Shown here: in pieces, positions 2,473 to 2,977 of the stretch | Layout: each line of letters starts with the position of its first letter | How positions within the stretch are numbered: the first letter of the stretch is position 1 | NCBI GenBank assembly: GCA_023061495.1 | Contig: GCA_023061495.1_3643.1 | Strand: one strand, 5' to 3' | Source of the DNA: Escherichia coli | Lineage (GTDB): Bacteria; Pseudomonadota; Gammaproteobacteria; Enterobacterales; Enterobacteriaceae | DNA length: 64,000 bases | The notes under the pieces: model-generated | Databases searched by the model: none | Seen by the model: the letters and a program-made list of their open reading frames with translations, nothing else | Told to the model about the DNA's origin: nothing | Program-made: the position numbers and the translations under genes

Positions 2473-2977
2473 ATAAAGAATATAACTAAAATAACTAAAT
2501 AATAAAAATAAAAGATCTAGTACTTATGGTACTAAAGTACATATACTTAACTTATGTAGAATATACTAGATCCTAAGTACCATGTTTTAAATTTATTACT
2601 TATTATGGGTAGTGTCGGCCCTTCATTGGCACTCGCCTACGGGGGGCGAGATGCCGGGCCTCCATAGTGCACACAATAACAGGAGTGCATACATGCAGGA
2701 CGGTTAACATGTGGGGGGAGCGAAGCGATAGCGCAGGCCAAAGGCCGAGCACTAATGTGGACCACCGACGAAAGCTTGCCAGCGCCGTAAGGAGTCGGTT
2801 GAGAGACTCCCGCGTGAGTTTGGTTAAAGTTTATGTGTGGAAACGGACAAGAAGGCTCCTAAATCTTCCCACAGCTGTGTAAACTCTACCAAGTAAGGCA
2901 ATCGCACCAGTTTGATAGAAAAGCTCGTTACAAGGCGATACAGTGAGTTTTTTCTATAACTTGAAGAGGAGGCAGTT

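Follow-up and report, generated by a model that had tools for sequence, protein, structure and literature searches.

A probable structured non-coding element beside a candidate replication origin in Vequintavirus phages and in 13-kb Escherichia coli plasmids

The genome of the Escherichia coli phage rV5 encodes a T7-like primase-helicase and a PolA-type polymerase and is circularly permuted, and in the paper describing it the replication origin was not placed (PMC3606486). The DNA analysed here (referred to as 'the window') is a stretch of 64,000 nt that belongs to the same genus, Vequintavirus, the rV5/FV3-like E. coli myophages. Within it, a non-coding gap of 640 nt separates the gene for a small protein of the HTH_36 family from a gene for a 192-aa protein, and part of this gap is a GC-rich block which had been described, from the letters of the sequence, as dense in hairpins and as a candidate structured RNA. 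This raises the questions of whether the block is a genuine element, in which kind of molecule its structure acts and what it might do at such a place in the genome. It was found that the gap probably does contain a real structured non-coding element, and that partial copies of it reside in a family of small E. coli plasmids; neither these copies nor the origin-like surroundings had featured in the original prediction.

The GC-rich block and its phage neighbourhood

The composition of the block is unusual for this phage. Positions 2601–2800 have a GC content of 0.58, against 0.32–0.44 in the flanks, and in 150-nt windows the stretch 2589–2867 reaches 0.60, more than anywhere else in the 64 kb (mean 0.439, sd 0.047, hence about 3.4 sd above the mean). 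The AT-rich block (~2473–2611) and the next gene (2978–3556) lie where the original prediction had placed them. The span of 2590–2977 given for the GC-rich block itself needs trimming: the block is present, but the conserved element has a sharp edge at 2612–2614 rather than at 2590, and recognisable homology stops near 2961. The features of the locus are collected in Table 1.

Table 1. Features of the Vequintavirus window around the GC-rich element (RNA letters are used for parts of the element)
Feature	Position	Strand	Basis or remark
Polynucleotide kinase	894–1376		
Metallophosphoesterase	~1384–1938		
Nearest upstream sigma-70-like promoter, TTGACA-18-TATTTT	1922–1951	+	Annotated P76 in rV5
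116-aa HTH_36 initiator-like protein	1986–2336	+	Pfam HTH_36; PHROG 12838 'replication initiation protein', E=1e-73
Three 21–22-bp iterons, each GTCCG-N5-CGGAC	2408–2472	.	Repeat search (TRF)
AT-rich block with two GATC sites	2473–2611	.	Invariant within the genus
Whole conserved structured non-coding element (GC-rich block)	2612–2961	+	L009 and plasmid homology, no coding periodicity
H1: GGCCC 2617–2621/GGGCC 2656–2660 around GGCA 2628–2631/UGCC 2652–2655 and CUCGCC 2632–2637/GGCGAG 2645–2650	2617–2660	+	
Variable hairpin GUGCAC...GUGCAU	2667–2690	+	Pairing read directly from sequence
Junction motif (C)NGUUAAC, then P2 5' strand AUGUG(UG)GGAG (three extra G in the window)	2700–2720	+	
Small internal hairpins GCGAAGC, GCG-AUAG-CGC, GGCC-AAA-GGCC	2720–2746	+	RNAalifold prediction
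P3: ACCGAC 2764–2769/GUCGGU 2794–2799 around GAAA, GCU(UGCC)AGC and CC(GUAA)GG	2764–2799	+	
P2 3' strand CUCCCGCG(U/C)G	2807–2816	+	Pairs with 2709–2720
3' domain, predicted long imperfect helix; motifs GGCYCCUAAAU (2854–2864) and GCAAUCGC (2897–2908)	2816–2908	+	
Terminal A/U-armed hairpin AUAGAAAAGCUCG...UGAGUUUUUUCUAU, 9 nt 5' of the Shine-Dalgarno	2914–2957	+	Predicted fold
Shine-Dalgarno GAGGAGG (2966–2972) and 192-aa gene (CDS 2978–3556)	2966–3556	+	PHROG 12226, function unknown

The cassette that precedes the element (1986–2611) combines an initiator gene, cognate direct repeats and an adjoining AT-rich region, the features by which iteron-type origins are recognised, and it looks like a candidate origin of this type. 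The number of iterons varies between two and four in related phages. The AT-rich block holds both AGATCT and GATC. Further upstream, relatives carry on the minus strand, just before the kinase gene, an RNA ligase gene that was not located in the window itself; downstream, the 192-aa gene is followed by two small genes and then by a tRNA cluster (4859–5672). Two other features of this downstream region were noted. Positions 4076–4363 are likewise GC-rich (up to 0.59) and apparently non-coding, and lie just before a strong sigma-70-like promoter (4364–4392) and the tRNA cluster; this second block matches no Rfam family, has an MFE z of -1.8, shows no sequence relationship to the first and is absent from the plasmids described below. 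A 99-nt tRNA-like gene (5328–5426), to which ARAGORN assigns a four-base anticodon (atcc) and Rfam a weak score of 33.7 bits, is termed 'tRNA-Lys' or 'tRNA-OTHER' in GenBank relatives and may be an intron-containing or non-canonical tRNA.

The boundary of the element is best seen by comparison with L009, a 137-kb IMG/VR contig that is the most distant phage relative available. There the initiator gene, the repeats and the AT-rich stretch have all been replaced, and homology restarts exactly at window position 2614. The L009 cassette, at 1819–2635 of that contig, has its own repeats, its own AT-rich stretch and a different protein of 143 aa, which also matches a 'replication initiation protein' PHROG. 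The 192-aa gene accompanies the element across this swap; in L009 the 62-aa gene that comes next is set apart from the 192-aa gene by an extra 287-aa gene (3569–4432). When the plasmids are included, the element occupies one and the same position beside three initiator/iteron cassettes that are unrelated to one another. Its opening bases, TAGTGTCGGC (2610–2619), are a near-perfect inverted half-iteron (GCGGACACTA, 2443–2452), which may be coincidence, since it is conserved neither in L009 nor in the plasmids.

Coding potential, conservation and base pairing

The open reading frame in the block (2667–2882; 71 aa, GTG start) exists, and its dismissal as spurious in the original prediction was well founded. 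Variable columns show no bias across its codon positions (13/18/14, p=0.63), in contrast to the adjacent CDS (36/19/92, p=1e-13), and the block as a whole gives 32/26/30. In L009 a premature stop truncates the frame, and the changes, read from the alignment, are mostly at second positions or non-synonymous; among genus members the gap has indels of 1, 3 and 18 nt, some of which break the frame. Neither the excess of third-position substitutions nor the preserved frame that mark protein-coding sequence was therefore seen in the element. Some GenBank records do place 31-aa and 56-aa ORFs here: BASEL records annotate two small CDSs in the gap, rV5 annotates ORF 78, and a 57-codon frame is open in every genus member examined. 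Given the substitution pattern, the one-nucleotide indels and the L009 stop, it is scarcely credible that the gap encodes small proteins, and the same holds for its being a functionless remnant in decay. Using the third codon positions of the neighbouring CDS as a neutral proxy, the element is 82% identical to its L009 counterpart whilst those positions are 66% identical; as judged from this comparison of sequences, the element is under purifying selection. Identity to L009 ranges from 71% (2801–2900) to 90% (2901–2977) between sub-regions. Conservation well above the level of synonymous sites therefore disfavours decay.

The evidence that the conserved block is folded comes from homologues. 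In an alignment of nine sequences, the 26 pairs examined were 99.6% paired, five of them were changed on both sides, and none of 500 shuffles was as good (0/500), whilst slid controls on the same alignment were 28–44% paired. Since the five double changes were all contributed by a single plasmid lineage, the number of independent covariation events is small. Helices surviving compensatory substitutions, the generic mark of a structured RNA, are thus present, albeit in few independent lineages. Within the genus, RNAalifold found one double change among sequences that are 88–98% identical and so too alike for this comparison to be informative. Thermodynamic folding of single sequences gave a mixed picture. 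The hairpin density that had been described cannot be demonstrated from the window sequence by itself, for which the MFE z was -0.98 on the plus strand, no better than shuffles, and -2.1 on the minus strand; the helices themselves are backed by the comparison of homologues. The unconstrained MFE fold of the window block did not recover H1 or the other helices supported by comparison. Plasmid versions folded far better than shuffles, with z=-7.85 and -3.38 on the plus strand and -5.70 and -1.21 on the minus strand, and the MFE of the whole block was better on the plus strand in 8 of 11 sequences. With conservation above the neutral proxy, no coding signature and compensatory base-pair changes, the description of the block as non-coding and structured is borne out.

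Covariation analysis, one of the checks proposed with the original prediction, yields three helices backed by compensatory changes, namely H1, P2 and P3. The hairpin offered as an example at the outset (ggca-ctcgcc-tacgggg-ggcgag-a-tgcc) was located at 2628–2655 and is the core of H1, where pairing is kept through two double substitutions; the 15 pairs of H1 are all paired in the nine sequences, and both substitutions are G-C to U-A changes in plasmid CP020521. P3 reads GCUGCC/GGCAGC in plasmids, which amounts to three double changes, and passes through a G.U intermediate in L009; its inner GUAA loop becomes GGAA in L009 and the plasmids, and plasmids of type B have an unrelated, perfect 8-bp hairpin exactly at the P3 site. 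P2 is a long-range duplex in which (A)UGUGUGGGAG (2709–2720) pairs with CUCCCGCGCG (2807–2816), using at least three U.G wobbles, to close a junction. In L009 its GGGAG/CUCCC is replaced by GGAAG/CUUCC. The P2 duplex of the window has an energy of -17.6 kcal/mol (RNAduplex) and is retained in 14 of 14 variants, including two plasmids with a rewritten 3' strand.

Other parts of the element are more freely exchanged. The variable hairpin at 2667–2690 is dispensable, because an 18-nt deletion removes most of it in rV5 and Pr121LW. The internal hairpins at 2720–2746 are invariant in phages and swapped for other hairpins in plasmids, and hence form a variable module. The 3' domain has the lowest phage–phage conservation (71%); its motifs are collinear with the plasmid versions, its predicted helix survives poorly in L009, and a consensus structure was not obtained for 2816–2908. 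The terminal hairpin (2914–2957) is ~90% identical to that of L009 and was not called as an intrinsic terminator. Phages and plasmids share the motif CUGUUWAC-N0-6-UGUGUGGG, in the form CUGUUWAC followed by UGUGUGGG(A)G, together with AAUGUGGA, GAGUCUCCCGCGC, GGCCCCUAAAU, GCAAUYGC and CGUUA, so that homology between them is collinear yet modular: short motifs are kept and whole hairpins between them differ. Within the window, UGUGUGGG is not enriched overall (6 matches vs 3.1 expected).

Several other candidate signals were discarded. UACG and UUCG tetraloops had been taken as RNA hallmarks and were withdrawn, since in MFE folds they are triloops in palindromic stems; a count of hairpin loops by type showed GNRA and UNCG not to be in excess. 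A resemblance of CCGGAAGGAGGCAGCAAAG to SRP RNA domain IV was excluded, being incompatible with the covarying P3 and unmatched by the Rfam SRP models. Look-alikes of DnaA boxes, Ter, Chi and boxA had been picked out by eye and fit their consensus sequences too poorly.

Conserved pairing of this kind could be formed by RNA or by single-stranded DNA, and the element more probably works as RNA. This preference, which we hold with some reserve, derives from P2, which depends on wobble pairs and is good on the plus strand only: across the variants its energy is -12.5 to -17.6 kcal/mol on the plus strand and -4.2 to -11.9 kcal/mol on the minus strand, an advantage of 5.5–10.6 kcal/mol. The main rival to an RNA is a single-stranded-DNA origin signal, in which unwinding of the AT-rich block would expose plus-strand DNA hairpins that recruit primase or helicase and are needed in cis by phage and plasmid alike. 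The element does adjoin iterons and an AT-rich block in every context, its hairpins covary, no promoter lies directly upstream and the phage has a T7-like primase-helicase of its own. GCGAAGC and cGAAg mini-hairpins, which are very stable in DNA, are present in the phage and in plasmid CP134895. The element also resembles the ssi (G4-/phiX-type) and rolling-circle sso sequences, which are GC-rich, hairpin-dense, strand-specific blocks of 100–300 nt near origins (the element has ~350 nt), with stems conserved more than sequence; this is a likeness by description rather than by sequence similarity, and ssi and sso act as DNA whilst P2 relies on G.U wobbles. In DNA, the three or more U.G wobbles of P2 would be T.G mismatches, and the G.U intermediate of P3 in L009 is equally awkward for a DNA signal, which we consider rather unlikely.

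Distribution in phages and plasmids

The element is undescribed, in that described RNA families do not match it in sequence searches. A scan of the whole window with Rfam 15 at gathering thresholds returned tRNAs only, relaxing the threshold to E<=10 on 2300–3100 gave rli43 as the best hit (19 bits vs a threshold of 100), and the three plasmid versions scanned gave nothing credible. The families covered include group I and II introns, ribozymes, tmRNA, RNase P, 6S, SRP, RNAI, C4/CI RNA, ROOL, GOLLD and HEARO. An Rfam/Infernal search had been suggested alongside the idea of a ribozyme or intron remnant; with no family matched at gathering or relaxed thresholds, no intron or ribozyme model fitting the phage or plasmid versions, and flanks that are complete, separate genes rather than split exons, that idea is not supported. 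ROOL, GOLLD and HEARO are comparable in being large, modular structured RNAs with no known function found near tRNA genes on phages and mobile elements, but the element matches none of them and its range, one phage genus and one plasmid family, is far narrower.

Among phage genomes, nucleotide searches found the element in genus members only, at 88–98% identity; region 2300–3100 is 94% identical to phage FV3 and matches 119 Vequintavirus records, and neither flanking protein occurs outside the genus in the phage database. Other genera of the Vequintavirinae, reached through the phosphoesterase gene, have a different synteny and no comparable gap. Pattern scans of IMG/VR, JGI metagenomes and GTDB genomes returned Vequintavirus-like contigs and chance matches only. 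Two sets of database records deserve mention: eighteen GenBank 'Campylobacter phage' records (MG0656xx) are ~92% identical to the E. coli Vequintavirus region, and the 137,565-bp E. coli 'plasmid' CP057073.1 is a Vequintavirus genome. These labels probably reflect contamination, mislabelling or carrier-state phage in the source cultures.

Outside these phages the element was found only in circular E. coli plasmids of about 13 kb. A partial homologue is present in plasmids of 13.2–13.7 kb and, in three copies, in one record of 39.6 kb, and in each it sits in the long non-coding region; of 5,426 complete E. coli genomes, 7 have element-bearing plasmids. The records of this family (L131, which is NZ_CP020521.1, L034, L132–L134 and L214–L217) come from hosts isolated from humans, cattle, chickens and a feral pig. 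The plasmids encode major capsid, neck/tail-completion, baseplate and tape-measure proteins, small HTH proteins and a 302-aa O-like initiator. Several of these proteins are 38–55% identical to products of the phage window, the baseplate protein being ~55% identical to the product of 23148–23684 and the neck protein ~48% identical to that of 14663–15004. Among the plasmid proteins annotated and scanned, none was recognised as a terminase or portal. From this gene content the plasmids look like undescribed, plasmid-type satellites of Vequintaviruses. A search of the literature found no paper on 13-kb capsid-bearing plasmids, and nothing relevant was found on a Vequintavirus transcriptome, origin or satellite.

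Helper–satellite pairs in which a virulent phage and a small element with phage-like structural genes have a non-coding site in common are known from P2/P4 cos and from the hijacking of ICP1 by PLE. Those sites are duplex DNA, whilst the present element has conserved intra-strand pairing and the tie between helper and satellite is deduced from gene content. It is very unlikely that the element is a double-stranded site of this sort, i.e. a packaging (pac) signal or a set of accessory protein-binding sites through which helper machinery acts on the satellite. Helper phages and satellites classically have common cis-acting packaging sites, and the plasmids have no terminase gene among the proteins annotated and scanned, which would suit such a site. 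Circular permutation of the rV5 genome (PMC3606486) likewise implies headful packaging. Compensatory changes within a strand and the replacement of whole hairpins are not expected of duplex binding, however, and the type-B plasmids do not have the most conserved common sequence.

Transcription and possible roles

If the element acts as RNA, it has to be transcribed. The nearest sigma-70-like promoter on the plus strand (1922–1951) lies 5' of the HTH_36 gene, 660 nt upstream of the element; a scan of 2337–2612 for sigma-70-like sites on this strand found none (phage-specific promoters are outside the reach of such a scan), and no intrinsic terminator was called at the 3' end of the element. The promoter and terminator of its own that would mark a discrete sRNA gene were thus not found. 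Because there is no promoter directly upstream and no terminator downstream, an element that forms one domain of a longer early transcript is somewhat more plausible than an sRNA of its own. The plasmids have their strong early-type promoters on the downstream side of the element. At its left edge there (L133 1483–1511 and equivalents), a conserved hairpin, GCCUAAAGAG...CUCUUUAGGC, reads as an intrinsic terminator on the minus strand, and could block antisense transcription into the iterons or mark the end of a minus-strand RNA.

The explanation that we tentatively put first is that of an undescribed, multi-hairpin plus-strand element, most likely RNA within an early transcript, that acts in cis near the origin. 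We infer each of its three parts, transcription, cis action and the link to replication. An early transcript would start at 1922–1951, run through the iterons, the AT-rich block and the element, and continue into the 192-aa gene. In it, the stable 5' hairpin H1 would be followed by a junction of exchangeable small hairpins closed by the long-range, G.U-rich P2, and the scaffold would be completed by P3, a conserved three-way hairpin, and by a 3' domain in which unpaired motifs are conserved. Acting in cis, this RNA might fold into a pre-primer, activate the origin as a transcript or offer the T7-like replisome of the phage a docking site. A cis role is favoured because every element-bearing replicon has its own copy beside its own initiator/iteron cassette, and because non-coding elements common to helper and satellite are usually needed in cis; the adjacency to iterons in the plasmids says little by itself, since they have a single long non-coding region. 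That this cis role is linked to replication is possible, and is put forward with caution.

The closest precedent is RNA II of ColE1 (with RNA I), which is likewise a multi-hairpin RNA of several hundred nucleotides beside an origin, acting in cis with one copy per replicon, and whose fold determines whether replication is initiated. The two are related neither in sequence nor by Rfam family. The element has no RNAI match, no antisense partner and no promoter at a fixed distance, so that neither the antisense RNA I nor the pre-primer promoter upstream of the origin that define ColE1-type systems was found; furthermore, its origin context has an initiator protein and iterons, both of which ColE1 is without.

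An association with the 192-aa gene offers another reading, in which the element, as a structured 5' leader or an intercistronic domain, governs stability, Rho termination or translation of that gene, for example by pairing CCUCC (2659–2663) with GGAGG (2968–2972). Such a leader would explain why the element stays with the gene across the L009 cassette swap; RNAalifold pairs GCCUCC with GGAGGC, and conservation is highest (90%) over the final 77 nt ahead of the start codon. It is nevertheless improbable, as the plasmids carry the element without the 192-aa gene and have their promoters between the element and the genes that follow it, L009 does not keep the CCUCC/GGAGG pair, and a homologue of the protein with 50% identity has no element upstream, where the gap is just 59 nt.

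We regard with similar scepticism a trans-acting RNA, processed from the early transcript and serving as a helper–satellite regulator, a protein sponge or an anti-defence decoy. Unpaired motifs (GAAAGCUUGCCAGCGCCG, CCCUAAAU and GCAAUYGC) are conserved, as might be expected of such an RNA, and UGUGUGGG recurs at the bases of plasmid hairpins. Phage phiTE, of the same subfamily, reportedly encodes an antitoxin-mimic RNA (pseudo-ToxI). The tandem repeats of ~34–38 nt that characterize type III antitoxins and their mimics are absent, however: TRF finds no array in 2612–2961, the repeats detected being the iterons (2408–2472) and a short A/T repeat. In addition, a search of E. coli genomes for an extended complement matched the plasmids only, and no promoter or terminator delimits a discrete RNA.

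To return to the folded, cis-acting RNA, its most specific version would be a 'handle' common to helper and satellite, each of which has its own initiator/iteron cassette, with the RNA recruiting the T7-like replisome of the phage or priming synthesis. The odds are against this version; if it is true, the handle would be an RNA-structure-based component of an origin and the means by which the satellite hijacks its helper. Vequintaviruses, among them rV5, FV3 and the BASEL isolates, are in wide use as models and in therapy, and neither their replication origin nor their early regulation has been mapped. Beside the best candidate for that origin lies a conserved, structure-bearing module which current annotations either ignore or label as small hypothetical ORFs. 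Its copies in the plasmids point to an undescribed type of satellite of virulent E. coli phages, and to a nucleic acid that both partners have in common.
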